Shown here one piece after another: positions 1,885 through 22,139 of a stretch of DNA of 24,508 nucleotides. The DNA is from a bacterium (GTDB lineage: Bacteria > SAR324 > NAC60-12). The stretch lies in assembly GCA_965233585.1 (NCBI GenBank), contig CBDDTI010000411.1, positions 1 to 24,508 of the forward strand. The letters run 5' to 3'. The notes under the pieces were generated by a model, which made no database searches, was not told where the DNA came from, and saw nothing but the letters and a program-made list of their open reading frames with translations. Made by a program: the position numbers and the translations under genes. The first letter of the stretch is position 1. Each line of letters begins with the position of its first letter.

Positions 1885-2604
1885 ATGCCGAAATCTTACG
1901 TGTGTCCCGAATGCCAAAAATCATTTGACAGAAAATCTTCTCGCGACAAACATCATTTATTCCGTCATCGCGAAACTACAAAATCTCGAGCTCGGACCCC
2001 ACTCAATCAGTCGTTTCAATGCCCATTTTGTAAGAACGAAGTAAGTTCTTTTAAATCAAGAAAAGATTTAGTCTCACACATTGACGCTTCTCATTTAGAA
2101 AATTTAAATTATTCATTGTACAAATCCGCACTTAACGGAAAAATCAAATTTTATCGAAAACACATTTTTTCAAAAGAAACACTTCAAGGATTTGTTGCAA
2201 ATAAAAAAAATAGACAAGAAATAGTTGACGTTATTTGTCACGAACTAAGTAAAACTTTTACGGTTAAAGTTGCCCTTATTTTGACAGCGGCGTATCAAAT
2301 TCCTGATTTGAATTCCGCTGCAGAGAAGAAGGACATTGAACTAGATACTACCAATATTGATGATACCTCTGATAAACCTTCTGATCAGTCGTCGCCTCAA
2401 ATATTGTCCAATGATCGAGATGTTTTTGCTCTAAGAACCAGCTACATTCAATTCACGTCTTTTGATTCATCCCGCTCGTTAAAAGGCAAAGTCCAAAAAT
2501 TATTACATAATTTAGTAAATAGAGAAGAAGATTTGTTAATGAGAGGTTCTGGATGGAGATTTGAATCTTTATCTTTTAGCGATATTCAAATTACTAGCAT
2601 TTGA
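1885..2604 (+). CDS. C2H2 zinc-finger protein with a putative terminal-protein domain (normally the pPolB N-terminus)
   Basis: Two C2H2 fingers (CPEC...H...H; CPFC...H...H). The C-terminal RGSGWRFESLSFSDIQI resembles the GSGW motif of Polinton pPolB N-terminal regions. AATAAA follows the stop. Confidence 0.7.
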   Translation: MPKSYVCPECQKSFDRKSSRDKHHLFRHRETTKSRARTPLNQSFQCPFCKNEVSSFKSRKDLVSHIDASHLENLNYSLYKSALNGKIKFYRKHIFSKETLQGFVANKKNRQEIVDVICHELSKTFTVKVALILTAAYQIPDLNSAAEKKDIELDTTNIDDTSDKPSDQSSPQILSNDRDVFALRTSYIQFTSFDSSRSLKGKVQKLLHNLVNREEDLLMRGSGWRFESLSFSDIQITSI

Positions 2605-2656
2605 TTTAATAAACTTATTTTGTTTTATTCAAAAAAATTTCAAATAAACTTTGGAA

Positions 2657-5600
2657 ATGGATTTTATAGAAATTCCACGTGATTTAAAGAGATCTAATTG
2701 CTTGGAATGGAAAACTCGTTACGATAAATTCAATTTTCTTTATCTGTACATTAGACATCTTTTTCCTGAGGAAACGGTTTCCGTTGTTGATTTTCGTCAA
2801 ATGCCGATAAAGTATCTTAAAAAGTTTAATATAAGAGGTTTCAAATTCCCTCTTCAATTTTGTAATTTAAAAAAATTCTTAAATAGAAACTCCCATTTAC
2901 CAATTTCAATTTCAGTTTTTTATGAGAGTGAAGGTCAAGTTTCAAAGTTAGGTTTTTTTACTAACAAAAACAACAACAGAAACAAAAACATTTTAAATTT
3001 GTTAATGATAAAATATGATCCTGAAATCTCTCTTGAAAATGAATCTCCATTTTCTCGCCTTGCAAAACCAATTCAACGCAAGAAAAAATCTTCTTGTAAA
3101 AAGATTGTCAATTGTAGTTCTAATGTCAAATTGGGTTTTTCTTCCAAGTTTAAAAAGATCAAGGATTTAAATCAACAGCACCATTTCTTTAAAATTACCA
3201 AAATCCAAGGTTTTTTGAATAATCGGGCCGGACTGTTGTCGGGTAAAAAAGCAGCTCAACAGAAGCACATCTATTGTGAAAAATGTCTGCTTCATTTTCG
3301 ATCCAAATCTAAAAAAGAAAAACACGAAAACACTTGCTGTGATAAACAACGTGCTATCTACCCAAGTAAAAATTCCTCCATAAGTTTTACCAATCATAAA
3401 CATAAATTTCATGCTCCTGTTGTTGGATTTTGTGATTTTGAATGTGTACTTCAAAGAAACAAAGAACGATCTAAATGTCAACTCTGTTTAAAAACTGAGT
3501 GTTTGTGTGCTTTTCCCACCAGTGACGATATAAACGTGCATAGACCAGTGGGGTATAGCTTGCTTTTTGTGGATTCGAATGATGAGGTATTTTTTCAAGA
3601 AGAATATGTAGGAGAGGATGCAGCCAAACATTTTTTGGATCGAATGCATTTCTATGAAAAAGTTGTTGACGAAAGAAAACAAAAATTCAGACATATTGTT
3701 AAAAATCAATCTAGTCCGCAAGAATGGCAAATGTATCAAAAAGCAAAAGTTTGTCATATTTGTGGTGGTCAATTCAAAAAGTACTCTAGAAATTACAGAA
3801 AAGTTCTAGATCATGATCACGTGACAGGGAAAATAATGGGCGCAGCTCATTCACTGTGTAACTTGACGAGATCCGGCCCCTTTCACACACCAATTTTTTT
3901 CCACAACGCTCAAGGGTAAGAAGTCTTAATTGGGTTTATTTATTAAACTAACACAAATTATGTACGCGTTTCAGATACGATTTGCATTTAATCGTGGAAG
4001 AGTTAAATGTTTCCAAATTTAAGCAAAATGTAAAAGTCTTAGCAAAAAACAGTGAAAAGTTTCGCACTCTTACATTGGGCAAATTTAAAATTCAAGATTC
4101 GTTAGAGCACATTTCTGGCAGTCTAGATGCACTTGTTCAAGATTTGAATCAGACCTCAAATTTTACCTTTCCCATTTTACAACAAATGGAAAGATATAAA
4201 AAAATTCCTGTTCGTCAAAAATCAAAAGCTTTAAAACTTTTAAAAAGAAAAGGCGTTTTTTGTTACGAACATTTCCAATCTTTAGAAGAGATGAAGAAAA
4301 GTCGAAACCTTCCGTCCAAAGACTCTTTTTATTCTGAATTAAACGAAGAACACATTACGGAAGCGGATTATTCCCATGCTCAAGAAGTCTTTAAATTGTT
4401 CAAATGCAAGAATGTGGTGGATTACATGATGCTCTATTGTTCTTTAGACGTTGTTTTGCTGTGTGAAGCATTTCTTCAGTACAGGAAAATGGTTATGGAA
4501 CATTTTCAATTGGATCCTGTTTATTATCTAGGTAAACTTTAATCTTTACTGTTGGATGTATCGTAATACTAAATTTGTTCTACCTAAATTAGGAATTCCT
4601 GGCTTGAGTTTTGATGTCATGCTTATGTTCTTTCAAAATTCAGAACAAGCTAAATCAGATAATAAGCTCACATCCGAATCTGAAACCTCCAAACCCCTCG
4701 GATCATTAGATGTCTATTCCGATCCTGAAATGGAGCGTTTTTTTACAAAGGGTATCAGAGGTGGGCAAAGTTTTATCGCTCAGCGTTATGCCAAAGGGAA
4801 TAGCAATCCTAGAAAAAGCGGCGATCACTTGTTATACATTGATGGTAATTTTATACTGTATTATCTGATGAAATCATTTTTGTTATGATCCATACAATTT
4901 TTCAGCCAACAACTTATACGGGAGTATGGAAACTTTAAAATTACCAGTTTCTGATTTCCAATGGGTTTCAAAAACAGAATTTAAAAATTGGACTGCCGAA
5001 GATATTATCAACATTCCTTCGCAAGACGATACTGGATATGCGTTCGAAGTTGATTTGCATTATCCTTCTCATCTTCACCAGGTAAATCCGATCTTTGTTG
5101 TGATACGTTATTTATTGTTTTGACAAGTTACATGATATCATTTTCAGGCACACGATCAATTTCCGCTGGCTCCGTATACAGACACGGTTTCTTTTAAACA
5201 TCTATCTCCTTACAATCGCCGTTTACTGAAACATCACTGTCCTCGAGATTATAGGAACAAAAGATACCGGAGCAAGAAATTGTTGAGCACTTTTTATGAC
5301 CGAAAAAAGTACGTGGTGCATCTGGAAAACCTGCAGTACTACTTGAAAAAGGGCATGAAGTTGCTGAAGATAAGAAGAGTCATGAAGTTTCGACAAAAAG
5401 CTTTTTTGAAGGAGTTCATCGAAAAGGTCACAAAGCTGCGATCAAATGCTCGCAATGACTTTGAACTCCGGCTTTTTAAACTTTTTGCCAACTCTACTTT
5501 TGGAAAATTTATTGGTGAGTTTTGAGATAAGATAATTTAATGATGTTGAGATTGTAAAAGACGCAAAAGCGTAATTTGACGCAGTCCATTTTTCTGTAAA

Positions 5601-8566
5601 AAATGAATTTGTTAAATACTCAAACGAATTTGGGGTCATTTTTTGTATTTTTTCTTTAATTTTGAGGCACAAGTGCGTGGTGGTACCGGCGACAGTTGCG
5701 GCAGTACGTCCTGCCGGCACCAACCACGCACTTAGCCTCATCAAAATCGTCATCTTCACCAATATCGGCTTCGTTGGCGGGGCTGACGTCGGCGGGGATG
5801 ACGTCGGCGGGGCTGACATCGGTGGGGATGACGTTGGCGGGGATGACGTCGGTGGGGATGACGTCCGGACGGACCGGCGACAAAGTCGGCGACGGAGGCG
5901 GCGGCCGTCCTGATCATCATGATCAAGCCTCTGGCAAGCCGTCTAAGACGGCCACCGCCCCACATCAGTGGTGGACGCGGCGGTGTCTCGCTCAATGGCG
6001 GGTCCGGCAGCAGCTTGAACCTCTCCTCCTCCTCCTCTTCCGTCCATTTCGCCCTCAACACCTCGTATTTCCCCCTCCTCATCCTTCCTAACTTTACCTT
6101 GTCCATTTTCCTTTTCCTTCTCCTTCTCCTCTTCCTTCTCTAAATTTGTTTTGAATTTTCCCGCATGGTTTTGTCAATTTTAGAAAATGAATCTCCAAAC
6201 CTTCACATATTAATTAGCAAATTATCTCATAAATATTCATAATATTAAATCAATATTAAATTAAAAATTCGCAAAATGAATTAATCAAGTACGCAAACTT
6301 TTGAAAAATCAATTTTTATAAAATGATGTGTTTATTTTGTAATCAAAAAGAAAAAGAAAAATGATCAAATTTAAATTTTAATTTTTTTTTGTAACTTTTC
6401 GAGCTGTAGACGGAGACCACACTGATGGAAATGCCGTTACTTGACGCACTTCTGGTGTTGGTGAAGGTTCCACGTGAGTATAGGGTTGTGGTTTAGATTT
6501 TTGTGTTGATTGTGAAGACAAATCAAAAGACACGCGATGAGAGGTCTGCTTTCGTGACTCCGACTCCGGCCTTTGTGGGACGGATTTGTACGGGGTTCGT
6601 GATGGCCAAGCAGGTGCTACGGGTCGCTCGGAAGATGCCCATGATTCTCCACCCAAAGCCGCAGAAGATGACCATGCTCCTCCAGTTTTAGTAGATGACC
6701 ATGCCCCCTCAGTTTTAGCTGATGACCATGCTCCTCCGCCCACAGCCCCAGAAGATGTCCATGCTCCTCCGGTTTTAGTGGATGACCATGCTCCCCCGCC
6801 CCCAGCCCCGGTAGTAGATGCGCTCTTCCACGACTCCGACCCTGATTTTTGCGGGACGGATTTGTACGGGGTCCGTGATGGCCAAGCAGGTGCCACGGGA
6901 CGTTCGGAAGATGCCCATGATCCCCCACCCAAGGCCGCAGAAGATGACCATGCTCCCGCAGTTTTAGTAGATGACCATGCCCCCTCATTTTTAGCAGATG
7001 ACCATGCTCCTCCGCCCACAGCCCCAGAAGATGACCATGCTCCTCCGGTTTTAGTGGATGACCATGCTCCCCCACTCCCGGCTCCGACAGTAGATGCACT
7101 CTTCCATGACTCCCGCTCTGATTTTTGTGGGACGGACTTGTACGGGGTCCGTGATGGCCAAGCAGGTGCCACGGGACGTTCGGAAGATGACCATGATTCC
7201 CCACCCAAGGCCGCAGAAGATGACCATGCTCCTCCGGTTTTAGTGGATGACCATGCTCCTCCGCCCCCGACCCCGGCAGTAGATGCGCTCTTCCACGACT
7301 CCGACCCTGATTTTTGTGGGACGGACTTGTACGGGGTCCGTGATGGCCAAGCAGGTGCCACGGGACGCTCGGAAGATGTCCATGATCCTCCACCCGCAGC
7401 CCCAGAAGATGACCATGCTCCCTCAGTTTTTGTAGATGACCATGCTCCCCCAGCCGCAGCCCCGGTAGAGCTACTGCCAGAAGTCGGACTTGAAGTTGCC
7501 TCCTCCTTGGCTGATTCTATTACTTTTAACCAAAAAGCTTTGCTCTTTTCCTGATCTTTTTTATCCATTTTGACTTAGTGTTTATTTTGTTGGAATTTTT
7601 GATGTCCGTTTATGTCGGGCTTTAAAAAAGGAATGATTTCAAATTGAAGTAAATTATAGTACATTGCTAATTACAGAGGAAAGTGAAATGTGATATGGGA
7701 CGGCTAGTTAGCTGAGGTGATTGCGCACATAATCAATTTTCTTTATTAAATAAATCTTATTTTGCATTTCAGAAAATGTTCGAAATTACTCTGAAGTGGT
7801 CCTTTGTGGTGATGAACAGAGCTTAAGGAAAGCCAGTCTTGGTCAACACATCAACAGTTTTCAAATCATCAATGAAAACTTGGTGGCTGTCAACAAGAAG
7901 CCGGCAATAATAGAGCTCAGGAAGCCTTTAGCTGTTGGATTTTCTATTTTGGAATTGTCCAAGTTGTTTATGTACAGATCGTATTATGACACGATTCAAC
8001 AACATTTTGGCGAAAAAAATGTGTCTTTATGTTTCTCAGACACGGATTCTTTTCTTTTAAAAGTAAGATGCAACAACTTGGAAAGGGAAATGAAAAAATT
8101 AGAGCACATATTTGATTTTTCAAAGTACCCCAAACAACATCCTCTTTTCGATGACAGTAGAGCCAATCAGCTTTTTTATTTTAAAGACGAACTAAAAGGC
8201 AGAGCTGCTATTACTCACTTTATAGGCTTACGTCCAAAATGTTATTCTATGAAAATTACTGATTTTTCAGACAAAAACAAAACAGAAGAAAAGAAAATTT
8301 GCAAAGGTTTAAAAAAATCTAGCATAAAAAAGCAATTAACCTATAACGATTACAAAAAATGTCTAAAACGTGCTGTTCTAATTTACAAATCTTTCAAAAA
8401 CTTAAGATCAAAGAATCATAAAATTCGGACATGTTTTCAAAGAAAGATTGCGTTATCAGCAATGGATTCCAAAAGACACATTTTGAATTGCGGATATCAC
8501 ACTTTATCACTAGGAAATTGTCTTATTGTCAACAACAAATCATCTAAATGCCCTATTTGTAAATAA
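2657..8566 (+). CDS. polB: Protein-primed family B DNA polymerase, 6 exons: 2657-3915, 3975-4531, 4593-4844, 4906-5081, 5148-5514, 7773-8566 (3405 nt, 1134 aa)
   Basis: Splicing rebuilds ExoII HNAQG/YDLHL, DPVYYLG/IPGLSFD, motif A YIDA/NNLYG, YPSHLHQ/AHDQFPLAP and motif B KLFANSTFGKFIE/NVR. Also present: ExoI DFE, ExoIII YCSLDV, motif C SDTDS, LRPKCY, KGL, and an endonuclease VII-like insert CHIC...DHDH...AHSLCN. Confidence 0.93.
3916..3974 (+). other. pPolB intron 1 (59 nt)
   Basis: GTAAG...CTAAC branch-like...TTTCAG; removal gives GG+A TAC GAT (G-Y-D) in frame. Confidence 0.93.
4532..4592 (+). other. pPolB intron 2 (61 nt)
   Basis: GTAAAC...ATTAG; removal gives YYLG-IPGLSF in frame. Confidence 0.88.
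4845..4905 (+). other. pPolB intron 3 (61 nt)
   Basis: GTAATT...TTTTCAG; removal restores catalytic motif A, D-A-N-N-L-Y-G. Confidence 0.93.
5082..5147 (+). other. pPolB intron 4 (66 nt)
   Basis: CAG|GTAAAT...TTTTCAG|GCA; removal restores LHQAHDQFPLAP. Confidence 0.92.
5756..6106 (-). CDS. Arg-rich, protamine/core-like ORF nested in intron 5 (frame uncertain, possibly a pseudogene)
   Basis: 116-aa ORF with RHPHR/RQPR repeats and MWGG|G. An in-frame upstream ATG at 6166 is cut off by TAG at 6142-6140, followed by RRKRRRRRKRK. TATAAAA at 6320-6314. Other frames are also partly open. Confidence 0.35.
   Translation of the reverse strand: MDKVKLGRMRRGKYEVLRAKWTEEEEEERFKLLPDPPLSETPPRPPLMWGGGRLRRLARGLIMMIRTAAASVADFVAGPSGRHPHRRHPRQRHPHRCQPRRRHPRRRQPRQRSRYW
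5772..5861. repeat. Six copies of a 15-bp GC-rich tandem repeat (CGTCGGCGGGGATGA consensus)
   Basis: Directly visible, with 0-2 substitutions per unit. Confidence 0.9.
6378..7568 (-). CDS. 396-aa Ser/Gly/Trp-rich repeat protein nested antisense in intron 5
   Basis: GTCAAA-ATG start, unique N- and C-termini, many GGAWSS units and four copies of ERPVAPAWPSRTPYKSVPQ. AATAAA on the minus strand at 6336-6331 follows the stop. Confidence 0.7.
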   Translation of the reverse strand: MDKKDQEKSKAFWLKVIESAKEEATSSPTSGSSSTGAAAGGAWSSTKTEGAWSSSGAAGGGSWTSSERPVAPAWPSRTPYKSVPQKSGSESWKSASTAGVGGGGAWSSTKTGGAWSSSAALGGESWSSSERPVAPAWPSRTPYKSVPQKSERESWKSASTVGAGSGGAWSSTKTGGAWSSSGAVGGGAWSSAKNEGAWSSTKTAGAWSSSAALGGGSWASSERPVAPAWPSRTPYKSVPQKSGSESWKSASTTGAGGGGAWSSTKTGGAWTSSGAVGGGAWSSAKTEGAWSSTKTGGAWSSSAALGGESWASSERPVAPAWPSRTPYKSVPQRPESESRKQTSHRVSFDLSSQSTQKSKPQPYTHVEPSPTPEVRQVTAFPSVWSPSTARKVTKKN

Positions 8567-8629
8567 ATAAAACATATTGTTACTTTTATTTAAGAAAAAA
8601 TTTTTAAATATTTTTCAAAAACTAGCAAA

Positions 8630-9324
8630 ATGGATGGTTTTGATTTAAGGTTCAGTATTCCTTCCAACATGTTAATTGTTGGCCCAACATCGAGTGGAAA
8701 AACAACGTGGCTTAAACATTTAGTGGTTGGTAGGCATGAATATTTTGCAACTCCGCCAGAAACAATGTTGTTGTTCTACAAAGAACCACAAAAAGCTTAT
8801 GAATACATGGAAGATGATATGAATCGAGACAAACGTTCAAACTCTCGTTTTCCAACATTTCGTAAATTTAAAAGTATTCCAAATTCGATTGAAGAACTAA
8901 AAGATATTTTGGAATCATATCCAAGAAAAATGCCCAAATTAGTTGTTTTTGATGATTATTTAGACGATGTTGGACAAATATTAAAACATTTTTTTACGGT
9001 TTTGACTCATCACTACAATTGTTTCACCGTTTTTCTGTGTCAAAATTTATTTGATAAAAAAGGTGATTTGCGGACATTAAGCATAAACACTCAGTACATG
9101 GTTCTTTTTAACAATCCTCGGGACAGAAGTGCGGTTGCGCATTTGGCTAAACAAATTTTCCCGGACGAGTCGGAATTTTAAATAAAGCATATAGGGAAGC
9201 TGTTAACGGTCGAAGTCATGGATATCTCCTTCTAGATTTCCATCAACAACAAGACGATAAAGTCAGAATTCGAAGCAACATTTTTCCGTACGAGGGTCTG
9301 ATGAAAGCTTACGTTACCGTTTAA
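8630..9324 (+). CDS. A32/FtsK-HerA family DNA packaging ATPase with a -1 frameshift near 9178
   Basis: Walker A GPTSSGKTT, Walker B VVFDD, HHYN..VFLCQN and RTLSIN. The conserved C-terminus (KAYREA...GYLLLD...RIRSNIFP) continues in the -1 frame to TAA at 9322-9324. Confidence 0.88.
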
Positions 9325-9372
9325 AGGATTTTCATATCTATTTAAGAAAAATAAAAAATTGCAACTGTCAAA

Positions 9373-9747
9373 ATGTCTAAAACATTAGGAAAAGCTAGTT
9401 CACTTTTTTATGTAATAAAAAAATTAAAACATCAGGATTGTGCCAATTTTTTAAGTCATTTGGACGATCGCGGAGTTGAATTGCTTTGTCGAATATTACA
9501 TTACGTGTTGAACGGTGACTTGCCCATACATGGCAAAGTACGAACACGTCTTCAAAAAAAGATAAGAGCTCATTTGTCAGAATTTAGACGTCTTGCTGCA
9601 CCACCGCGTCGTTCTTCCGACATTTCAAAAAAAAGAAAAATATTACAAAAAGGCGGAATTTTAGGAGTTTTATCAGCGATCGCCAGCACCGTCATCCCTC
9701 TTTTGGCCCAAATTATTGCAAATAAGAGTTCGCGACGTCGTCGTTAA
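9373..9747 (+). CDS. Basic virion core protein with a C-terminal membrane-active helix (adenovirus pX-like)
   Basis: QKGG|ILGVLSAIASTVIPLLAQII is an adenain-type site followed by a hydrophobic helix, typical of Polinton/adintovirus core proteins. Confidence 0.7.
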   Translation: MSKTLGKASSLFYVIKKLKHQDCANFLSHLDDRGVELLCRILHYVLNGDLPIHGKVRTRLQKKIRAHLSEFRRLAAPPRRSSDISKKRKILQKGGILGVLSAIASTVIPLLAQIIANKSSRRRR

Positions 9748-9749
9748 AA

Positions 9750-11211
9750 ATGAACTCAGGAGTAAAAATAAAACCACATGATGAAATGTATTCTATGTTT
9801 TTAGTACCTAAAAGATTATATTATTCATTAATAAAAAATACGGAAGACGATGAATCAAAAAAAGAACTTATTTCTATGAATGAAAAACCGGAAACAACCA
9901 ACTATATTGAAAATGCCATTAAATTTAAAAATCTACAAGACAGACAGAAAATAATCCAAACTGGGGATAAATTACTTCGTTTTGGGTCTGATAAATTACC
10001 GAATGTCACATCAATTGCCCAATCTGATAGCATGGGTCGTACTTACCAATCTCTTTCAAGATCACCATCCACTCAAATTCCTCAACGAGAAGAAATACAG
10101 AATGTAATGTCTCCTGGTCGAGTTACCCAAAAAGGTAGCAGTATTGACCGCGCTTACCACCCGGTTTTAAGATCACCATCCACCCAAATTACGCAACGAG
10201 AAGAAATACCAAATGCACTAACACCTGCTCGAATTGATTCCGATATGGATCTCACGGACGTATCTCTTTACAGAACACCCACTGAAATTCCCCAACAAGA
10301 AGAAAATAATTTACCTAGTACCCCCATTATTGAAAGAGAATTTGTTGCAGAAAAATCTCTTAGTCCTGAAAAAACAAAAAGTCCGAACGAATCAGCTTAT
10401 TCAACTCCTGTTACTACCAAACGAGAAGAATGGCGAGAAACACCTGTTTTAGAAGCGATGACGAAAAGAAATTCAAAAGGCAAATTAGTTTGTCCAGTTC
10501 CTGATTGTTGGAAGCAATATGTTGACGAAGGGCAATTGGGCAAACATTTGCTAAAAGATCATCCTAAAGATATAGCTTTGAAAGACAAAAAGACCATTAA
10601 AGGAATGATTTCCAGCCCTTACGCTAGAAGAAACAGCTCAAATGAAATGGATTACTCATACGCACTTTCCACAATAAAATCTCCAGTTGTGTTAAATTGG
10701 CGAAATACACCTATTGCAAAAGCAGTGAAAGAAAAGAATGCAGCCGGCAAAATAGTTTGTCCTTTTCCCAATTGCGGGAAGCAATATGTCGGCATTCCAC
10801 AATTTGGCAAACACATGATGAAAGAACATTATAAAGAATTGTCTGTAAGGGATCAAGAATAAAATTTTTGGAATGACCTCTACCCCTCGAAAAAGAAGAT
10901 TAAGAGGAATTGGAAGCTCTTCTCCTTCATTTCCACTCACACCTGTTAAAATACGATTTTCAGCCGGAAAAGCTAAATCAAAGGGTGCAACAAAAAGAAA
11001 TTCCACTGATGCTGACATGACTCCTGCACAAACCAAAATCAGATCAAAATCAATGAAAATGTCACAATCTAAAAGCCCAATAAACAGGGACCCTATTGAA
11101 GCTGGTGTGTCTCCTGTAAAAACCAGATCAAAAACAAGAAAAATGTCTAAATCAGAAGCTAAAGTAGATTCTGTTAAAAAACTTTTTTCAGGAAAATATC
11201 CAAAGTTATGA
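9750..11211 (+). CDS. Protein with two C2H2 zinc fingers and a basic SP/TP-rich tail; ORFs 9750-10862 and 10873-11211 are probably one gene with a +1 frameshift
   Basis: Fingers CPVPDC...H...H and CPFPNC...H...H. The internal repeat KDIALKDKKTIKGMISSP aligns without gaps to KELSVRDQE/KIFGMTSTP across the frame break at 10860. Confidence 0.6.
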
Positions 11212-11224
11212 AAGTAAAAATATA

Positions 11225-11707
11225 TTAACATTTATTTTCAATTTTTTTTATAAAGTGAGTTACAATTTTATCGTTTTCTGATTTGGGATTTTTTACAAAT
11301 AATTTAACAAATTGTTGAGGGGTCATTAAATTGTTGCCCACGGATAAACAAAATGCGCACGTGTACCATCCACAAAACAAAGAACGGAAACTCTGAATTG
11401 AGTGAGATAAGATAATTTTGAAGGAGTTTTTCTCTATCCAGGGTCGTAAAAACTTCATCAAACATTTGTTCCATATCGGTGGTAAAAAACCGAAAGAATC
11501 AAAATAATAGAGTTGATTTTTCTTGTTAATGTACATTGCTACGAAATGAGATCCTTCTTGATTTCTTTTGGATAAGTTAGCGATCAGGCAGCAAGGCAAT
11601 GAAAGCGGATCAGATGGCAAGTCGTCGACCGAAAATACCCCGATGAAATTCTTACATCTGGGTCGAATGTAATTGTTTAAAAAGATATTTGATAACCCAC
11701 CCTCCAT
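11225..11707 (-). CDS. Adenain-like cysteine protease (capsid maturation)
   Basis: FIGVFSVD, GSHFVA (His), YFDSFG (Asp) and IQS...FCGWY (Gln, Cys). Confidence 0.92.
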   Translation of the reverse strand: MEGGLSNIFLNNYIRPRCKNFIGVFSVDDLPSDPLSLPCCLIANLSKRNQEGSHFVAMYINKKNQLYYFDSFGFLPPIWNKCLMKFLRPWIEKNSFKIILSHSIQSFRSLFCGWYTCAFCLSVGNNLMTPQQFVKLFVKNPKSENDKIVTHFIKKIENKC

Positions 11708-11710
11708 ATT

Positions 11711-13060
11711 TTAATTGGTTCCTTTTATGACTTGTTGAAATTGATCTATTTTAATACCGGAGTTAAAAATAGATAAGGCCAGAACGTATATTGGATGGGG
11801 AGTGATTTGGGAAAAAGCCAACTCTAAATCTAAATTTCCATAATTTTCTGGATGAGTGTGGTACGAATTACATTGATCTGGTGTCAAGTCGGCCGCCAGA
11901 AAAAATCTTCCATTTATAAAAGCATCATACGTCAAGCCAATGGACTGATTGCCGTGCGAAATGCCTATACTGTCGTATAAATGTCGATACAAATCAACAA
12001 CGTCCCCCTCCTCAATATTAGGTTGAAAAGGTTTGGGAAATACGCATTGCCCGTTCTTTTTTAAATTAAACGAGGAAAGATTAAAGTGTTGAAAATTAAA
12101 AGGATTTTTGTCGGGAGCATGCGACATAGCCTGATTGTGAACCATCACAAAAAACACTTGTTTGGGTAATGTTCCATTAGCAATATTAGCGATGTTAAAA
12201 GACGACACGCCTTGAGGAATAACGTAATGTCTTAAACGTGTAGAGCTAAAAGGCAGGTAGCACGGTTCTTTTAAAAGTTTGTTTTTGAAACTTTCTCGTA
12301 TTATCAACGTAGGCAACACTTTTCTCATATGCAATTTGACATCTTTTAACACAATTTTGAAAGGTTTTGCTGCTGCAGGATCTTGAAGCAAACCAAATGT
12401 TTCAGCCGATCTAACCAATTTTATCTTGATATCCACATTTGGTGGTAAGAATCGATCAGTGTCAAACAGATCAACAGCTATACGCGAGTTAAAAAATACT
12501 TTTTTCCCGTTTAAAATCAAATTCTTTCTTTTTGTCAAAGAATTAGAGGAAACTTCTTCGGTAATTTTGGTGGTGGTAACTTCGTCTATAGTTTCGGGAT
12601 AATATCCTTCAGCAGCCAGATAAGTGTCTTTTACGTCAATATTGTAACTTAAATATGATTGTAAAAACATTCTCCAGGGGTAGGTGACCGCCGAACTTAA
12701 ATCAGCTACTTGAACACCGTTCAAATACACTTCTACTTGACTGAATAAACAAGCAGCAAAATGATTTACCAACGCGGTTTTACTTGCCTCCGTGACAAAG
12801 CCGCCGTCATCATTTGTCACTACAAAATGCCCACTGAGTCTGGTTTGACTCAGTATAAAAGAACACTCGTTGTCGCGAGGAACAAGAAATTCTACCGGAC
12901 CGGTGTTGGTGATAGAAGCCACGCTATTGTAAATAACGTGAGCCCCTTCCAATAGACCCGTTTCCACTTCTAAGGGTGCGTGAAGCGCTAAACCACTTTC
13001 TGTGCCATCGTTTTGTTCCACGGCCAATCCAGCAATTCCGCTTTTATCAGGCAAGCCCAT
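11711..13060 (-). CDS. Major capsid protein (double jelly-roll, hexon-like), 449 aa from ATG 13060
   Basis: Polinton MCP-like motifs GPVEF, LFSQVEVYLNG, FLPPNVDIKIKL, LPKQVF, NPFNFQHF, DLTPD and GNLDLEL. Confidence 0.88.
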   Translation of the reverse strand: MGLPDKSGIAGLAVEQNDGTESGLALHAPLEVETGLLEGAHVIYNSVASITNTGPVEFLVPRDNECSFILSQTRLSGHFVVTNDDGGFVTEASKTALVNHFAACLFSQVEVYLNGVQVADLSSAVTYPWRMFLQSYLSYNIDVKDTYLAAEGYYPETIDEVTTTKITEEVSSNSLTKRKNLILNGKKVFFNSRIAVDLFDTDRFLPPNVDIKIKLVRSAETFGLLQDPAAAKPFKIVLKDVKLHMRKVLPTLIIRESFKNKLLKEPCYLPFSSTRLRHYVIPQGVSSFNIANIANGTLPKQVFFVMVHNQAMSHAPDKNPFNFQHFNLSSFNLKKNGQCVFPKPFQPNIEEGDVVDLYRHLYDSIGISHGNQSIGLTYDAFINGRFFLAADLTPDQCNSYHTHPENYGNLDLELAFSQITPHPIYVLALSIFNSGIKIDQFQQVIKGTN

Positions 13061-13067
13061 ATCAAAG

Positions 13068-13610
13068 ATGGAAGTGATGGTCAGCAATGTTAAAATCAGT
13101 TGCAAAATTCGTCTCATCGACAGTGACAAAATTTCTTTTAATACCGATAATGTACTAAAACATTATAATAATTTTACTGTTGTTAAAAAAAAATATTCTT
13201 TTATTGTGTTTACTAAAACAAAGCAAAATCGAAATTTCCACGTAAATATTACTAAAATCCCTTCCACAGAGCATATACCAAAAGCATTAGACGAATTAAA
13301 ACTTGTTATAAGTAGTAAATTTATTACTGAAAAGTTTAAAATAGAAAACATGACTTGTTTGTGTCATATGTCATCAAAAATCAATTTATTAACATTTTAC
13401 AACAATTTGAAATTAAATGTAGATTTTGAAATTATCCAAAAGAGATACGACTCTGAGAAATTTCCTGGAATGTTTTTAACATTAAAAAAGTGTTCTGCTT
13501 TAATATTTTCGTCTGGAAAAATAGTAATAATTGGAGCTTCCTGCGAAAAAGACGCTACACAAGGAATAAAAATTATTTCTGAATTGCTGAAAAAATATAA
13601 AACTGAATAA
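13068..13610 (+). CDS. TBP: TATA-binding protein homolog (180 aa, core only)
   Basis: Second repeat FKIENMT...YDSEKFPGMF...ALIFSSGKIVIIGA closely matches the TBP signature. First repeat VSNVK...YNNF...FIVF...VNITK is diverged. Confidence 0.9.
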   Translation: MEVMVSNVKISCKIRLIDSDKISFNTDNVLKHYNNFTVVKKKYSFIVFTKTKQNRNFHVNITKIPSTEHIPKALDELKLVISSKFITEKFKIENMTCLCHMSSKINLLTFYNNLKLNVDFEIIQKRYDSEKFPGMFLTLKKCSALIFSSGKIVIIGASCEKDATQGIKIISELLKKYKTE

Positions 13611-13716
13611 ATTCAATATAATAAAAGATTACGTCGGATTATTTGTAAAATCAGTTAAATTTTGAACTTCGTACAATAAACAATGAAATTATGTTCAAAA
13701 ATTAGATTGGATTAAA

Positions 13717-14436
13717 ATGTGCATTCATCAATATATAATAGAAGACACCAGACAAGGAGACGTAGTGTGCACCGAGTGTGGTTTAGTTATTGATAAAATA
13801 TATTGTGATCCAAATTTAGAAACAAAATGGGAAAAAATAAAAAATTTAAATGAAGAATTTGAACAAAACAGCGAACATTTAAAGAAGGAAAAAAATATTT
13901 TAAAAAATTTATGTAATAAATTACATTTAAATAATGATGTTACAAACACTATTTTTAACTTGTGGTCAGAAATAGTAGCGTGGCATTATCAAAAAAATGG
14001 AAAAATTAAAATTAATCCAAAAGGCTTAATTGCTATGGCATTGTATCAAAGTTTAATAGAGGAAAAAATTCCCCGCCCAATAAGTCACTTGTGTCAGGAA
14101 ATTGGTATTAGCCCAAAAACGGTATGGCGATGGATAAAATTATACAGACAAGATTCGACCAACACAATTAAAACAGAAAATTCTATAAAAGCAAAAGATA
14201 TGGCAGAATATTTTTTACAGCCTCTACAGTTAAATTATCAAGAGATGACAACTATAAAAGAAAAACTAAATAAAAATGAAAATAGTTCTTTTGCTCCTAG
14301 GACTTTATTAGCAGCATGTGCTTATGCCTTTTTAAAAGAAACAAGAGCACTATATCCGAGCGTCAAAAATACAGCTCGTATTTTAGGCGTCAGTGTTATG
14401 TCTTTATACAGATGTCTTAAAAGTCTAGAGCAATAA
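13717..14436 (+). CDS. TFIIB: Transcription initiation factor TFIIB homolog (239 aa)
   Basis: N-terminal Zn ribbon CIH...EDTRQGDVVCTECGLVI, then two cyclin-like repeats (LCNKLHL...AMALY...IPRPISHL; APRTLLAACAY...TARILGVS). Confidence 0.9.
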   Translation: MCIHQYIIEDTRQGDVVCTECGLVIDKIYCDPNLETKWEKIKNLNEEFEQNSEHLKKEKNILKNLCNKLHLNNDVTNTIFNLWSEIVAWHYQKNGKIKINPKGLIAMALYQSLIEEKIPRPISHLCQEIGISPKTVWRWIKLYRQDSTNTIKTENSIKAKDMAEYFLQPLQLNYQEMTTIKEKLNKNENSSFAPRTLLAACAYAFLKETRALYPSVKNTARILGVSVMSLYRCLKSLEQ

Positions 14437-14444
14437 GAAAATAT

Positions 14445-14846
14445 ATGAATTACCACAGCGGCTTACGTTGGCAACGAGGCTCGGGAATCGGATCACTTTT
14501 TTCCGGAATTTTTCGTGGTTTAATGCCGGTAGCAAGATCAGCGGTAAAAACTATTGGAAAAGTGGCTAGAAGCGCACCGATAAGATCCGCAGGTAAAGCT
14601 TTAAAAAAAGAGGCGACAAAGGCGGCGGTAGAAACTGCATTAGAGGCTTTGGAGGGTCAACCGGTCGGGAGAAAAGCTAAACAACGATTAAAATCAGCTA
14701 CTCGCGGTATTTTGCTTAACGCTGCTAGACAAGCAGATACCAACAACGAATATCGAGCTCAAAATTCGAGCAGAAAGAGGAAAACACCGTCAATTGCTAA
14801 ATCTAGGAAAAAAAGACGGAGAATAACTAAACAACCCTTGTTTTAA
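14445..14846 (+). CDS. Basic core protein with an N-terminal amphipathic helix (pVI/pVII-like)
   Basis: QRGS|GIGSLFSGIFRGLMP is typical of Polinton core proteins; Arg/Lys-rich C-terminus. Confidence 0.75.
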   Translation: MNYHSGLRWQRGSGIGSLFSGIFRGLMPVARSAVKTIGKVARSAPIRSAGKALKKEATKAAVETALEALEGQPVGRKAKQRLKSATRGILLNAARQADTNNEYRAQNSSRKRKTPSIAKSRKKRRRITKQPLF

Positions 14847-14852
14847 AAAGAA

Positions 14853-15935
14853 ATGACAACAAAAGAGATTTTTTTAAAAGAATATGCAAGACCAGGCTCA
14901 CCAATAGCTTTTGCATCTCCTGCGTTGATTTATTATTATTATGGAAAAAAAATTCCTTTAACGACAATTGAAGAATGGTTAAAGGGAACTGATTCTTACA
15001 CACTTCATAAACAACCAAAATTACCTAAACCTAGAAATCCAACATTTGCTTATCATAAGAGATATCAATTTCAAATTGATCTTATAGATTTAGGAAATTT
15101 GATCGAAGAAAATGACGGGAATAGATACCTTCTAACAGCTATTGATATTTTTACACGATTCGCGTTTGTAGAACCCTTAAAAAATAAAACAGCAAAAACT
15201 TTTATGGAGGGATTTGAGTCTATTATGAAAAGAGCAAAAAAGTTTCCTCGTAGAATTTTAGCTGATAAAGGTGCAGAAATAAAGAATAAATTGTTTCAAG
15301 CCTACTGCAAAAACAATAACATTCTTCTATTACACAGCAACAATTTTGTGCACGCCCCTTTTGTGGAAAGATTTAACCGAACTTTAAAAAATCTGATGTT
15401 TAAATACATGACTCACGAAAATACAGATAGGTACATCGATGCATTACCTTTTCTTGTTCATACCTACAACCATCGTAAACATCGTATGATTGGAATGTCA
15501 CCCGCTGAAGCCGAGCTCCCCGGTCGGACTTATTTTATTAGAAGAAAACAGGAATTGCATTATTCAAAGTTTAAGAGAAAAAGACCAAAATACAAAATTG
15601 GTCAAACCGTGCGCATTAGCATAATGAAGGGAAAATTTGACAGAGGTTTTACACAACAATTTAAGGAAGAAATTTTTAAAATAAAATCAATTTTTACTCG
15701 TTTGCCTAAACCTACTTATGAATTGGAAACTTTAGAACAGGATGAAACTCTGGAAGGAAATTTTTATGAGAGTGAACTTACTCCCGTGAATGAGCCAGAA
15801 TTATTTATGATTGAAAAAATTTTACGAACAAAAAAAGATAAAAAAACAGGTGAAAAAATGGTTTTGGTGAAATGGAAAGGGTATAAAAACCCCAGTTGGA
15901 CATATGAGAAAGATGTAGTTGATGTGTCACAATAA
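14853..15935 (+). CDS. int: Retroviral-like (rve) DDE integrase with C-terminal chromodomain
   Basis: YTLHK, QIDLID (D), IDIFTRFA, ADKGAE (D), VERFNRTLK (E), YNHRKHRMIGMSP and chromodomain LVKWKGY...SW. Confidence 0.95.
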   Translation: MTTKEIFLKEYARPGSPIAFASPALIYYYYGKKIPLTTIEEWLKGTDSYTLHKQPKLPKPRNPTFAYHKRYQFQIDLIDLGNLIEENDGNRYLLTAIDIFTRFAFVEPLKNKTAKTFMEGFESIMKRAKKFPRRILADKGAEIKNKLFQAYCKNNNILLLHSNNFVHAPFVERFNRTLKNLMFKYMTHENTDRYIDALPFLVHTYNHRKHRMIGMSPAEAELPGRTYFIRRKQELHYSKFKRKRPKYKIGQTVRISIMKGKFDRGFTQQFKEEIFKIKSIFTRLPKPTYELETLEQDETLEGNFYESELTPVNEPELFMIEKILRTKKDKKTGEKMVLVKWKGYKNPSWTYEKDVVDVSQ

Positions 15936-15941: not shown

Positions 15942-17693
15942 ATGGATTATAACATTTATTGCGTGTCAAACGCTGGTTCCAATACGGACGTCAAAAATAC
16001 TTTAAATTCCTTTACCAATTTATTTCCGCAAAATTTAGATTTGAAAAATAGAGAATGGGAAATTGGAATAGTATCTATGGGGTTACATTATAATTACAAC
16101 CAATTAACCATGACAAAAGGTCAAATCGGTGTCATAACGCTAAAAAACGAATTAACATCTATAAATTCTTCAGAAAAGGAGATAGAGACCGAGATTTTAA
16201 ACCAGACAAAATCTGTTTGGGTTTTGCCTGATTTAGATGAAGAAGATCTGTCAGTATATAGATTAATGCAAAATTTGATGCAATTTATTTACAAGGAAGG
16301 AATGAAAATGGTTAGTGGTGACCTCGAATCAGACGGTGAAACTAAAAGATTCTACATAATTGAAGAAGGTCCTAAAAAAGAAACCGAAAATGAGACGGAA
16401 AATGAAAATTACAATCATAATAGATACTTACTAATTCATCAACAGTTAATAAAAATTATAAAGTTAAGATGTTATAAAGACAGAGTGTTTTTTTCTGGAG
16501 AAAAATCAATTAAATATTTTGGTAACGAATATGTGTATTATCCGTTACAAAAAAATTTTAGGTTTCAAACCATAGCAAATAAAGTGACTTCCGTTTTGAA
16601 ACCCGGTTTAGTTCACGTAAAATCAAATATTATTTCCGACGTTCCTAACAGTGATAATTATTCCACAATTATGTTTACAACAACTTTACCTAAGCAAATG
16701 GAGGGTCATTATTTTTACCATAATGTAAAAAAGGTCAGATATTATCAAGTGCGGCAAACCAATATTGAGACAATAAACTCTCAATTCACAGATGCTTTTG
16801 GAAATCTTTTGAGCTTAAACGAAGGTCAACCGTCTCTAATTCATTACCATTTGAGAGAGAAAGAAAAAAACATGGATCACGAATTGAGACACGTGCGAAT
16901 CGATTCGAAAGTAGATGCCAAATTGGATTACGAAAATACAAATAGTAGCTTTTGGGTGCATTTAAAACATCCACTGCATTTAAATCCAAACGCGAAAATT
17001 GCCCTGATGGATATTTCTTTTCCCGACAGCATATGTAGCATTCCAGAATCAATCGCTAATGAACCAATAATAATAAAACTGGTTAAAGGTCAAAACATAG
17101 AGGAAGAACACAAATTGAATATACCAAAAAATTATTTTTGTGACTCTAACGATTTAACAACGGCAATGAATGATTTATTGACAGAAGAATTAAAGAAACT
17201 AGTATATTTTGAAAACGTTAATGGATATTTAAGAATTACGGCTAAAACTGATCAAATTTTTATAATTGGATTTCCACAAAGCTTTTGTCCGATTTTAGGA
17301 ATGTACGATTACCCCAATGAAGAAAAACAAAGAGTTAGTGATCAAAACAACTACCATTTTTTTGCTGTGAGAAATTACTCAGTTTATCAAGCACCACAAC
17401 CGATAGACATTTACAAACTGTATCCTGGTGTTATGATTTGTTATGCCAATTTTGTTCAGCATTCTATTGTCGGAGACAAATTTTACCCAATACTTAGAAT
17501 TATTCCCACGATTGGACAGTCAAAACAAAATGACTACTGCTCGATCCATTTTGAGCATTTAGAATTTATCAAATGCAATGTTGATTATTTAGACAACATG
17601 AAGATCGAATTGAGGAGATTGGACGGAGACTTAATTGAATTCGACAACGAAAAAAGTGTTATTTTAAATATTGTAATTAAAAACCCAATTTAA
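15942..17693 (+). CDS. Minor capsid (penton-like) protein with two tandem domains
   Basis: N-terminal motif SN...NTLNSFTN...LDL...WEIGI recurs as DS...NTNSSFWV...LHL...KIAL. C-terminal motifs SNII...IETI...TDAFGNLL and ANFVQHSIVGD...ILRII...LDNMKIEL...DGDLI also recur. Confidence 0.75.
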   Translation: MDYNIYCVSNAGSNTDVKNTLNSFTNLFPQNLDLKNREWEIGIVSMGLHYNYNQLTMTKGQIGVITLKNELTSINSSEKEIETEILNQTKSVWVLPDLDEEDLSVYRLMQNLMQFIYKEGMKMVSGDLESDGETKRFYIIEEGPKKETENETENENYNHNRYLLIHQQLIKIIKLRCYKDRVFFSGEKSIKYFGNEYVYYPLQKNFRFQTIANKVTSVLKPGLVHVKSNIISDVPNSDNYSTIMFTTTLPKQMEGHYFYHNVKKVRYYQVRQTNIETINSQFTDAFGNLLSLNEGQPSLIHYHLREKEKNMDHELRHVRIDSKVDAKLDYENTNSSFWVHLKHPLHLNPNAKIALMDISFPDSICSIPESIANEPIIIKLVKGQNIEEEHKLNIPKNYFCDSNDLTTAMNDLLTEELKKLVYFENVNGYLRITAKTDQIFIIGFPQSFCPILGMYDYPNEEKQRVSDQNNYHFFAVRNYSVYQAPQPIDIYKLYPGVMICYANFVQHSIVGDKFYPILRIIPTIGQSKQNDYCSIHFEHLEFIKCNVDYLDNMKIELRRLDGDLIEFDNEKSVILNIVIKNPI

Positions 17694-18490: not shown

Positions 18491-19085
18491 TCACAATTTA
18501 ATGGTACTTGAGCAAATCCAAATAAATAAAAATTTTGGAGTTAAACAAGTGCCAAAAAAGTATGAAGATTAGATGTTAACATTTTCGGAGTGAAGTAGTT
18601 GCTCACAATTTTGTAACTTTTATGTGGATTCAAATATTAAAATTAAAGATTTAAATCGCGCACAAAAGTTAAAAAAGTGTAAGACGTTGATCTTGATGAT
18701 GAAATGTGATGAAGGTTGACTGTGATTTAACGATGTTTATGCTAAATAATTGCTCACAATTTAATTACTCTTGTGGCGAGTGTCATATATGATAAAACAT
18801 TATGAGACCCGTACAAGAGTAAAAAAAGCATGAGATGATAAGCAGTGTCCGGATTTTAGAGTTGAGTAATAGCTCACAATTTTAATGCCAAATGTGACAG
18901 GTCAAATTTAATTTAAAAATTTAGACCTACACACATTTGTCAAAAAAGCATGAGAAATAAAGATGGTCTTCGGAGTTATCTTGAGTGTAGTAAAAACTCA
19001 CAATTTTAAAATAAATGTGAGAGATAAATTATAATTAAAAAATTTAACCCCTCACATTTATCAAAAAACTATGAGAAAATAGATG
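18491..19085. repeat. Five degenerate 110-150 bp repeats
   Basis: TCACAATTT at 18491, 18603, 18754, 18874 and 18998, each followed by an AAAAAAG(C/T)ATGA-like block. Confidence 0.65.
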
Positions 19086-19381
19086 TCTTGATAATTGAAA
19101 CGGTTGAAAACGACTGTGAGTTGAATTTTTAACAGGATTGGATGAAAACTTTGATACGCGCGATCAAATTTTTGTCTTATCAGAAACAACTTTGGAAATT
19201 CTTCTTTTTAAAATTTAGAGTTTGAAAAATTACATTTGAGCGGGTTTGGAGCAAAAAGGACGGAATTTTTAAACATTTTTCATTCTTAGAACCTTTCTTT
19301 GCGCTTTTAAATCGAGAACAATTTGACAATGGAGAAAAATAGATGTTGCAACAAGCCTGTAACCGACTTGTTTTCGTCTGC

Positions 19382-19669
19382 AATCGGCTTGCAACAGGCT
19401 CGATTGAGCCTGTAATCGGCTTGCAACAGGCTCGATTGAGCCTGTAATCGGCTTGCAACAGGCTCGATTGAGCCTGTAATCGGCTTGCAACAGGCTCGAT
19501 TGAGCCTGTAATCGGCTTGCAACAGGCTCGATTGAGCCTGTAATCGGCTTGCAACAGGCTCGATTGAGCCTGTAATCGGCTTGCAACAGGCTCGATTGAG
19601 CCTGTAATCGGCTTGCAACAGGCTCGATTGAGCCTGTAATCGGCTTGCAACAGGCTCGATTGAGCCTGT
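19382..19669. repeat. Nine perfect copies of a 32-bp unit (AATCGGCTTGCAACAGGCTCGATTGAGCCTGT) with an internal hairpin
   Basis: Period 32. Each unit holds ACAGGCTC-GATT-GAGCCTGT. An inverted copy of about 60 bp from 19361-19420 lies at 19703-19762. Confidence 0.95.
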
Positions 19670-19926
19670 TGCAAATTGCAGACGAAAACAGGCCGGTTGC
19701 AGGCCGATTACAGGCTCGATTGAGCCTGTTGCAAGCCGATTGCAGACGAAAACAAGCCGGTTGCAGGCCGATTACAGACGAAAACAGGCTCGATTGAGCC
19801 TGCAACAGGCTCAATGTAGATGCCATCAAGGTGGTTTGAGAGCGCTTTAAGATGGTTTTCATGCGTAAACGGATGGTTAAAAGCCCGTTTTAGACTGTTT
19901 TAAGGTGTTTTGAGAGTGTTTTGAGA

Positions 19927-19978
19927 AGAAATGTGCCTACATCAAGCTCGAAAGAGCCTGATGTAGGTACATTTCTCT
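19927..19978. other. Terminal hairpin (23-bp stem, GAAA loop) and putative right terminus
   Basis: AGAAATGTGCCTACATCAAGCTC-GAAA-GAGCCTGATGTAGGTACATTTCT pairs at 21 of 23 positions (plus one G.T and one mismatch), followed by terminal CT. Confidence 0.75.
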
Positions 19979-22139
19979 ATAACAACCTTTTCCTTTCTTT
20001 CTGCAGGAGCTGGAATCGTGTGGGCCGGTCTTTTCTGACGGGGGTGCCTCGGGTGCTTCAATGGCTGGCCGGGATGCTGCTATAAGCTTGCACCTCTGAA
20101 GGGTCGGAGCAGTCGTAGGCTGTAAGATGGTAACGGGCTTCCACGGTGCCATACCCATTCCGGAGGGTGAAACGGTCGGCGGAGAGAACGGAGAGGAGTC
20201 CTATCAGGGATCCTAGAGTGGTGCTCCGATGGATGCGGCTGGTGGAGGAGGTGATGACTAGTCCCAGGAGGAGAACACAGAGGTTGGCTCGGAGACCCAT
20301 GTCGGCCCGGTAGGATGGTATAAGTGTAGTCGTTGTAGAATCCGGAGCGGGCAGCAGTGGGGTACTTGGGAACGGCGACTCGGGTAGGATCGTGACGGTA
20401 ACAATCGCCCAGGGCGAGGCTGGAGTGTGGTCTGATCCTTGCGGGGTCCTCAGCACCCGTTCTTGTGTCTCCCAACTTGATTTCAATCGGCAAAACAGAG
20501 TCGTTCCTTTCCACCACGAGAGGTCAGTCACTGTGAGATCTCGGTGAGGAGAGAACAGACGAATCGATTTGTAGAAGAGAGAACTTACAAGGTCGTTTTG
20601 TTCGGATGTTACAGCGACAACAAGGTTCAAGTCACGACAATTGGGCCAATGAGACATAAAGGTGGCAACACAATTCCGATCGTGGCGAGCATGCCACAGC
20701 CAGGGTCCACGGGGAAACCACAAGATCCCTATCTCGTCACATCTGGTTCTGCCTCTTCTCTCTCCTAATCTTGGGGCGCCTAAGGGCATCACTGCTCTCC
20801 TCCAGGCGTCTCGTTCTGAGCATCGGACCTCGGGCCTGGAGTGGAGATCGATGAGGATGGACTCCTCACACTCTCTTTTCCACTCTGCTGTACAGGATTG
20901 ATTTACCCTTCTAATGGGGATCACTCTCTTCCCTCCTGTGTGGCAGAGAGCGGCCACGGTCACTTCGTCGTATGTGGCGGTGTCCACATCGTCCCATGGT
21001 TCATGCCCGGCGCCGGCAGAATCCTCATCTTCCCCAATAGCAGCCACCAGCTGTCGTTGGCCAGAGCTCTCGCCCACGAGGGGCAGGACGTTGGTGGCCT
21101 CGGCGAACCTCACTTCCCTCGGACCATTCACGGTCGCCCGAGATGATGGATACCGCGCGGGTAACCCTTCACTAAATGGAGCAGCACAAGTCCACACAAT
21201 TAACAAGCCCACGAGGCAAGGGTGGTTCGTTCCCGGAGCATTGAGACGAAACTCACACTTGGGGCAACAGTACACAAGGCGGAATTGGTTCCTCTCCGGA
21301 GTATTCGGACCAGGATCACAGTGGAGGTAACAGTACATTGAAATCACTCTCATTTCATTATCATCTACTGCCAGATTGCATGAAGCCGCGGCTGTATTCT
21401 GGATATGCCCACTTGTCAAGTGGGAGCACAAGATTATAAGTACAACACTGGGACACAGAATTGAAGTCACAAACGTAAGGGTCTCTTGGGTGATTTGATC
21501 TTTGGCACTTGGCGAAGGAATAGGGACTCCGGAGCCGCTGGAGGGTGCATCTTTCATCTCCCTGGGTAGGCGGGTTCCTTGTATCGATTCCGTGGATTCG
21601 AAGAGTCCTCCCCGTCCACAGGGGTGATCTGCGTGGGGATCGTTGTCCGCCCGGAGCCAAGGGGTGTGAGCGCGACATCCTCCCCGGAGAATCACCAACG
21701 GAAGGCCCTCTCTCTCTGTAGAGCTCCGCAGACCGTGGGCTCTGTAGTTTTGAGGCACTAGCGGCATTGGACTCCAGGCTGTGTCGAGGTGTCGTGAGTG
21801 GGAACCGATGGTGTAACAGTCCTGTGTGGTAGGCGGAGCAAGGAGTTGAGGACTACCTCCGGCTTTCAGAGGAGAATTTTGAACTAGCGGGGCCGCTCCC
21901 CCTAGAGGCACCTTCGCATCGATAATCAGGGGATCACGCCCGCAGGCAGCCCAGGCACCCACCCTTTGACAGGGCATTCGGAGAAGGGGAGTAACTCGAG
22001 CTCTTACATGCGCTTCTTCCCATGTCCTCCGGGACGTCCGACGAGGGCAGAATCCGGGGAGGCCGGCAGCGAGCGGCCGCGGGCAGGGGCACAATGGTGA
22101 CCTGCGTACAGCCCCGCGGGGTGGAGGAATGGGGTCCAT
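19979..22139 (-). pseudogene. Degraded env/viral glycoprotein-like reading frame of a GC-rich element, truncated at the Polinton junction
   Basis: Hydrophobic segments precede LTAYDCSDP...H*STRG...FQLLQKERKR, with an in-frame TGA where a Cys is expected. This resembles the YDC...C...QLLQ N-terminus of chuvirus-like/retroelement glycoproteins. The upstream part of the ORF is not recognisable. Confidence 0.45.

Follow-up and report, generated by a model that had tools for sequence, protein, structure and literature searches.

Why should an integrating element of about 20 kb carry a TBP and a TFIIB of its own when it carries no RNA polymerase? The question arises from two adjacent genes in the stretch of DNA analysed here (hereafter the window: 24,508 nt, the whole of contig C411 of assembly G000). 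A sequence-only reading had described them as co-oriented TBP and TFIIB frames inside a Polinton or adintovirus, and had proposed that they form a viral promoter-recognition module, perhaps for late promoters. Profile matches, recovered folds and a conserved gene order confirmed that both genes are what they were taken for and that they lie inside the element.

Mavericks, or Polintons, have terminal inverted repeats (TIRs), span 15–40 kb and are associated with a target-site duplication of 6 bp. The window contains gene types of this group (integrase, A32-like ATPase, adenoviral-type protease and family-B polymerase), and its bases 1 to ~19981 are 96–99% identical to sister copies, the complete ones measuring 20.6–24 kb between TIRs of 430–620 nt. 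The right terminus of the element lies at ~19981 and the rest of the right side is flank; the left TIR is off the contig, and the window has the right end only. Judging from window positions 19930–19981 and the sister termini, the element reads TGTAG...CTACA, with TA for the final CA in the window, and the flanks mostly start with AC. Many copies are nested in one another and, with termini uncertain by a few bases, none of the six TIR pairs showed an exact target-site duplication of 4–8 nt. The genes and the right end are arranged as follows:

1885..8566, plus strand: family-B DNA polymerase gene in several pieces (weak PHROG match; motifs in the sequence)
8630..9181, plus strand: A32/FtsK-like packaging ATPase (PF04665 E 4e-4, under the cut-off; 183 aa versus 231 aa in sister copies)
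9373..9747, plus strand: PZ-like protein (conserved position; the PZ label is our assumption)
9750..10862, plus strand: C2H2 zinc-finger protein (ZF), behind PZ (370 aa versus 486 aa in C523)
11225..11707, minus strand: adenovirus-type cysteine protease (PRO; PF00770 E 0.006, under the cut-off; position conserved)
11711..13060, minus strand: putative major capsid protein (MCP; probable start 13060, with the frame reaching 13117)
13068..13610, plus strand: viral TBP (180 aa, two-lobed saddle)
13717..14436, plus strand: viral TFIIB homologue (239 aa; zinc ribbon, two cyclin-like repeats, C-terminal helix-turn-helix)
14445..14846, plus strand: basic core-like protein, directly behind TFIIB (no informative family match; presumably PW-like)
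14853..15935, plus strand: retroviral-type integrase with chromodomain (INT; PF00665 above the cut-off, PF00385 E 3.5e-5)
15942..17693, plus strand: probable minor capsid protein (mCP), presumed from size and position (no informative family match)
19355..19981, unstranded: right terminal repeat region, containing a 32-nt tandem array (the region makes up the 430–620-nt TIR of complete sister copies)

The putative MCP gave a full-length profile match (97%) to a capsid-like gene from a Polinton without TBP and no match in Pfam, PDB, PHROGs or NCBIfam. Since the ATPase and zinc-finger frames (8630–9181 and 9750–11211) are shorter than in the sisters, the window copy may be partly decayed. Tandem repeats of 107 nt occur near the left end (467–805), and the right end holds ~123-nt repeats and a 32-nt palindromic array (18583–19056 and 19291–19809). 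The flank (19982–24508) is GC-rich and nearly unique, with a 693-aa frame lacking a Pfam match (20058–22139, minus strand), and its end presumably resembles a retroelement envelope gene. An opsin-like exon beside one relative indicates that the host is probably an animal. G000 itself is a mixed bin of animal Maverick contigs and gene-dense contigs (C295, with bacterial rpoB/rpoC, and C745–C747, of similar density); other Polinton-like elements lie on C304, C322, C581, C657, C155 and C389, and relatives likewise turn up in a giant-virus MAG and in a bacterial one.

The polymerase gene is broken at identical places in sister copies, and breaks occur in distant relatives too. GT donor-like motifs were found at four of the piece ends, and the breaks are probably spliceosomal introns; vertebrate Mavericks, unlike the clade of the window with its split polymerase gene, are described as intron-less in the passages concerned of Barreat 2021 (PMC8097293). 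The largest polymerase gap holds, in antisense, a Ser/Gly/Trp-rich repeat frame of 396 aa (6378–7568, minus strand) that is intact in several near-identical copies and has no informative family match.

Both folds assumed by the sequence-only reading were recovered. The viral TBP matched PF00352 with 60.8 bits (curated cut-off 22.9) and showed the two-lobed saddle with no extra domain in its 180 aa, at ~20% identity to cellular TBP. In the window it has the four intercalating phenylalanines F36, F48, F132 and F147 and the central asparagines N7 and N94. To follow these residues we used 47 clusters formed at 85% TBP identity, of which G000 contributed 7 and other sources 40: N94, E130, F132, P133, G134 and F147 were invariant in 47/47, F48 in 46/46 and N7 in 42/42, and residue 36 was Phe or Tyr in 45/45. 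The C-lobe stirrup is kept in the window as Y127-D-S-E130-K-F132-P-G, and E130-x-F-P-G in all 47 clusters; its acids in the window are D128 and E130, and at position 128, that of the first acid, 45 of the 47 have Asn. The N lobe is remodelled, with a shortened stirrup and the polar residues K9, H58 and N60 family-invariant on its sheet. By comparison of the lobes, K9 and N60 stand in place of cellular valines and the C-lobe threonine has become Val or Ile, tentative equivalences that for the N lobe rest on secondary structure. From these residues, the viral TBP would be expected to have an altered specificity relative to cellular TBP.

The zinc ribbon of the viral TFIIB matched PF08271 with 33 bits (cut-off 29), and its C-H-C-C ligands are conserved, with C2, C18 and C21 present in 47/47 clusters and H4 in 46/47. 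Two cyclin-like repeats and a C-terminal helix-turn-helix follow (model helices 52–238, aligned by profile to residues 104–290 of human TFIIB); PF00382 scored above the cut-off in the relative L001 and under it in the window. Ribbon and core are 44 aa apart in the window and 29–50 aa in the family, versus 87 in human TFIIB, indicating that the B-reader and B-linker are reduced and that the protein is a TFIIB homologue and not a canonical TFIIB. Profile E values, from few PDB taxa, were 1.8e-18 for human TFIIB, 1e-8 for yeast, 2e-6 for TFB and 4e-5 for Brf1. The recognition helix is kept (S226 in 37/39 and R232 in 39/39 clusters), and the window also has the arginine through which TFIIB touches TBP in cellular pairs, a residue present in just 7 of 41 clusters.

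Analysis of the distribution of the two genes showed that the same 35 contigs of G000 carry both, and that wherever a contig is long enough the protease and capsid genes point one way (PRO<, MCP<) and TBP>, TFIIB>, core>, INT> and mCP> the other. The G000 families stand at TBP identities of 95–100%, 74–88% and 34–40%. Four of the 39 capsid-bearing contigs were without the pair, namely another Polinton, a rearranged copy, a truncated copy and a weak match. A metagenome scan yielded 77 loci, some of them duplicates. Where the flank was long enough, TFIIB lies behind TBP in 64 of 67 loci and the capsid gene is arranged head-to-head with TBP in 58 of 63. Among the exceptions, one inspected locus looks archaeal and at L084 no capsid gene accompanies the pair. 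The latter locus (L084:986-2250) is a divergent adjacent TBP and TFIIB on a 3.4-kb contig with no Maverick genes detected, and its TBP, although on a long branch, groups within the Maverick TBPs.

The sequence-only reading had set against itself the possibility that the pair consists of recently captured host genes in neutral decay, which would agree with the two broken copies among 41 for each gene and with dN/dS values above those of the integrase (0.06–0.10). By hand count, however, 39 of the 41 G000 loci are unbroken for TBP, and likewise for TFIIB. Both genes are under purifying selection, with dN/dS of 0.17–0.28 for TBP (7 pairs, 1 saturated) and 0.14–0.23 for TFIIB (8 pairs), close to protease and capsid. 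Tree distances of TBP and TFIIB followed those of MCP and INT (rho 0.89–0.92; 26 clusters with all four genes), and the 47 clusters keep one gene order at a median TBP identity of 36%. In a tree built without any giant-virus sequence, a branch with 100/100 support separated 21 Maverick TBPs from 25 cellular-type ones. Given also the ~20% identity to cellular TBP, such a capture has next to no probability and was rejected. The TBP–TFIIB pair is real, old, conserved and clade-defining in these Mavericks.

We also compared upstream regions. A consensus box, TAT(C/T)TAA(A/G), was first spotted by eye upstream of MCP, where it occurs in 35 of 46 windows (3.0 expected); it was also present before ATPase (10/24) and PZ (8/24), and elsewhere in TBP 2/42, TFIIB 1/47, PRO 0/30, INT 0/38 and polymerase 0/11. 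Against circularity, de novo motif discovery was trained on ATPase, PZ and mCP upstream regions only, with MCP held out. The resulting motif, aC(A/T)(C/G)TATTTAAA, reached an LL of 156 versus 37–48 on three shuffles, and its matrix, with a site threshold of 9 bits, recovered 36 of 46 held-out MCP regions (2.7 expected, maximum 6). The training classes gave mCP 17/33, ATPase 14/24 and PZ 13/24, and the other genes ZF 3/20, core 2/38 and INT 1/38, with no site before TBP (0/42), TFIIB (0/47), PRO (0/30) or polymerase (0/11). A reciprocal matrix, trained on MCP sites chosen with the first one, found mCP 12/33, ATPase 8/24 and PZ 12/24 (about 1 expected). Site density was 5.2 per kb upstream of capsid and packaging genes versus 0.2–0.5 elsewhere. 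These counts come from related sequences and hence are not independent; the same pattern was seen in 15 lineages less than 50% identical (MCP 13/17, 0.9 expected). The box is missing upstream of roughly half of the mCP, ATPase and PZ genes, and almost always upstream of the core (2/38) and protease genes, also virion-related, which would need read-through.

The MCP and TBP start codons are –7 to 87 nt apart, which places the capsid box antisense inside TBP. The Leu codon under the box is TTA in 35/35 sequences, versus 7/34 to 15/26 at five other Leu columns, indicating that the site is fixed by DNA and not by protein. Upstream of TBP, canonical TATAWAW occurs in 15/42 (3.0 expected) and TCAGT, which we take to be an arthropod-type initiator, in 22/42 (11.9 expected, maximum 20), with a spacing of 31–35 nt in 6/13. 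In the window the candidate boxes are:

13135..13143, minus strand: candidate late box of MCP, a TATTAAAAG variant, 83 nt upstream of ATG 13060 (5.3 bits)
8587..8594, plus strand: candidate late box TATTTAAG of the packaging ATPase, 43 nt upstream (5.8 bits)
9339..9346, plus strand: candidate late box TATTTAAG of PZ, 34 nt upstream (8.7 bits)

The boxes of the window's own lineage are divergent, all three being below 9 bits. The MCP candidate lies antisense in TBP codons ~23–26, at a site orthologous to that of relatives, the minor capsid gene has a canonical TATAAAA in place of the box, and there is no TATA within 150 nt of the TBP ATG. The data suggest that the TBP–TFIIB pair and its matching box are a switch for virus-building genes. 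They support the promoter-recognition module of the sequence-only reading through folds, conservation, selection and a gene-class box, and a box common to capsid and packaging genes only lends independent support to its guess at late promoters.

The box is itself TATA-like and A/T-rich, and could be read by host TBP or a TBP-related factor, with the viral pair serving mainly as a decoy, to tie up Pol II or to sit on the promoters of the host (host shut-off); a B-reader/linker down to 29–50 residues and the loss of the TBP-contact arginine from most TFIIBs would fit this. We regard it as unlikely, because the DNA-binding face of TBP and the recognition helix of TFIIB are invariant and the box differs from TATAWAW at positions 4–5, while the same elements have canonical TATAWAW before TBP and polymerase. 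In addition, the capsid and ATPase genes of the five TBP-less Polinton-like contigs of G000, a small control set, scored below 9 bits. One of the TBP-less contigs, C155, has two sites of at least 9 bits upstream of non-capsid genes.

Taken together, the results make it likely, as far as sequence can tell, that the pair is a two-protein viral core-promoter module that turns on capsid and packaging genes via host Pol II. A clade of animal Mavericks of ~20–24 kb, without RNA polymerase, would thereby possess a virus-specific core-promoter module of two genes. At first, TBP, TFIIB and the polymerase would be made early from host-type promoters by host factors. Motif pattern and altered residues suggest that the viral TBP would then bend the non-canonical box TAT(T/C)TAA(A/G), which in this model it would prefer over TATAAAAG; the viral TFIIB would dock on the C-lobe stirrup, which is conserved, and its helix-turn-helix may read C(A/T)(C/G) upstream of the box. 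Lastly, as suggested by the invariance of the zinc ribbon and by the probable presence of spliceosomal introns, the ribbon would recruit host Pol II in the nucleus, and major capsid, minor capsid, packaging ATPase and PZ would be switched on as a late class.

As to the polymerase used, the sequence-only reading had seen no RNA polymerase subunit in the window, and this held: Pfam matched no RNA polymerase, VLTF or capping gene among the 20 window frames, and the ADFDGD motif was absent from every related locus. Together with the donor-like motifs at the polymerase breaks, the lack of a polymerase subunit points to nuclear Pol II. Alternatively, the pair and box could work, as virophage promoters do, with the RNA polymerase of a large DNA virus that co-infects as a helper. 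The nearest viral structures to the TBP are giant-virus TBPs, the nearest clusters by language-model features are labelled Nucleocytoviricota (few members with taxa), and the one relative in IMG/VR is filed in a giant-virus MAG. That contig is itself a Maverick, though, the spliceosomal-type donors imply nuclear Pol II transcription, and the sole RNA-polymerase motif in G000 is that of bacterial rpoC; we therefore consider a helper polymerase improbable. Less probable still is an action outside Pol II, in which the pair would serve Pol III in the manner of TFIIIB (TBP/Brf) or would tether the integrase encoded next to it and so direct its targeting. The pair is co-oriented with core and integrase, and targeting of the Ty3 integrase by TFIIIB is a precedent (PDB 7q5b is among the structure matches). 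The profile, however, is far nearer to TFIIB (1.8e-18) than to Brf1 (4e-5), and such an action would leave a gene-class-specific box upstream of protein-coding genes unexplained.

Recruitment of host Pol II by a viral module has partial parallels. According to the passages concerned of their reports, chloroviruses (PBCV-1; PMC7019647) and Ariadnavirales (bioRxiv 10.64898/2026.08.29.747986) lack RNA polymerase, are transcribed in the nucleus by the host enzyme and express early their own TFIIB, together with TFIID in chloroviruses. The Maverick clade resembles chloroviruses in having its own TFIIB and TBP and no polymerase, but is not a member: chloroviruses are Nucleocytoviricota of 280–370 kb with TFIIS, VLTF2/3 and capping enzymes (same passages of PMC7019647), and for ariadnaviruses the passages of that preprint list just TFIIB and VLTF2/3, whereas here a ~20-kb integrating Maverick has the adjacent pair and nothing else recognisable. 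In the late pre-initiation complex of beta- and gammaherpesviruses, as the corresponding passages of PMC12529657 describe it for KSHV ORF24, a viral mimic of TBP, whose DNA face is more polar, sends host Pol II to late genes via the non-canonical TATTWAA, and early genes have host-type promoters. The Maverick TBP and its candidate late box resemble these, and any likeness between the boxes would be convergent. The herpesvirus complex comprises six viral proteins, and ORF24 is large, binds Pol II itself and is without the TFIIB-binding acids (same passages), whereas the Maverick TBP is compact, retains the glutamate of the stirrup and is paired with a viral TFIIB. Membership in this complex was rejected on the 180-aa TBP without an extra Pol II-binding N-terminal domain, and membership in the Nucleocytoviricota transcription systems on the absence of multisubunit RNA polymerase, VLTF and capping genes.

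Orthogonal, co-evolving viral TBP–TFIIB pairs in large dsDNA viruses are described in the relevant passages of Ravarani 2020 (PMC7221094), and share with the Maverick pair the presence of both factors per genome, the retained DNA-binding phenylalanines and the diverged host-regulator surfaces; poxvirus VITF-3 differs in working with a viral polymerase and in its three-lobed TBP (PMC12917281, passages concerned). The main text of Ravarani 2020 does not contain 'Transpos', and its relevant passages have no Polintons. Mavericks, Polintons and adintoviruses are credited in the relevant passages of PMC8097293 and PMC8502044 with eight core gene types (pPolB, INT, ATPase, PRO, major and minor capsid, PZ and PW) and TIRs, and the present clade shares core gene types and TIRs with them. 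The sequence-only reading did not know the two genes as standard Polinton genes; in the literature covered, 'TBP' occurs for Polintons just in one figure legend, of Starrett 2021 (PMC8502044). TFIIB, the pair and a promoter box are absent from the main texts (TFII, 0 hits in PMC8502044; TATA and TBP, 0 in PMC8097293), a term look-up in other Polinton papers gave no mention of TBP/TFIIB or TATA, and none of the titles and abstracts covered describes the pair in Polintons; an earlier annotation may exist in supplements, figures or Repbase.

We lean, by a narrow measure, towards a stronger statement: that this clade would possess the smallest virus-specific Pol II initiation system known to us, two proteins orthogonal to host TBP/TFIIB with their cognate promoter antisense in the TBP gene. 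If so, integrating animal elements of ~20 kb would have an autonomous early-to-late cascade, possibly with negative feedback, as capsid transcription runs antisense through the 5' end of TBP. Viral TBP/TFIIB systems would extend from large DNA viruses to integrating elements of ~20 kb, which bears on how large DNA viruses acquired such factors. The pair and box also bear on the timing of Maverick capsid genes and on helper-free particle formation; Maverick particles have not been observed according to the abstract of Barreat 2021. With a conserved pair and a box restricted to capsid and packaging genes, a late programme becomes open to direct reporter and binding assays, and the clade provides dozens of natural factor–promoter sets for studies of TBP specificity and for orthogonal Pol II promoters.

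We also detected further genes in relatives. A conserved gene in L001:830-1378, L048:5932-6537 and 14 other clusters, absent from G000, has an acidic/lysine-rich N-terminus and a beta-beta-beta-alpha-like C-domain that resembles PC4/Sub1, a resemblance to which sequence search gave no confirmation. Distant families (L004–L009, on G000 contigs C98, C382, C58, C593, C93 and C213) have two tandem major-capsid paralogues, and in L007 and L008 each of the two has its own TATTTAAG box.
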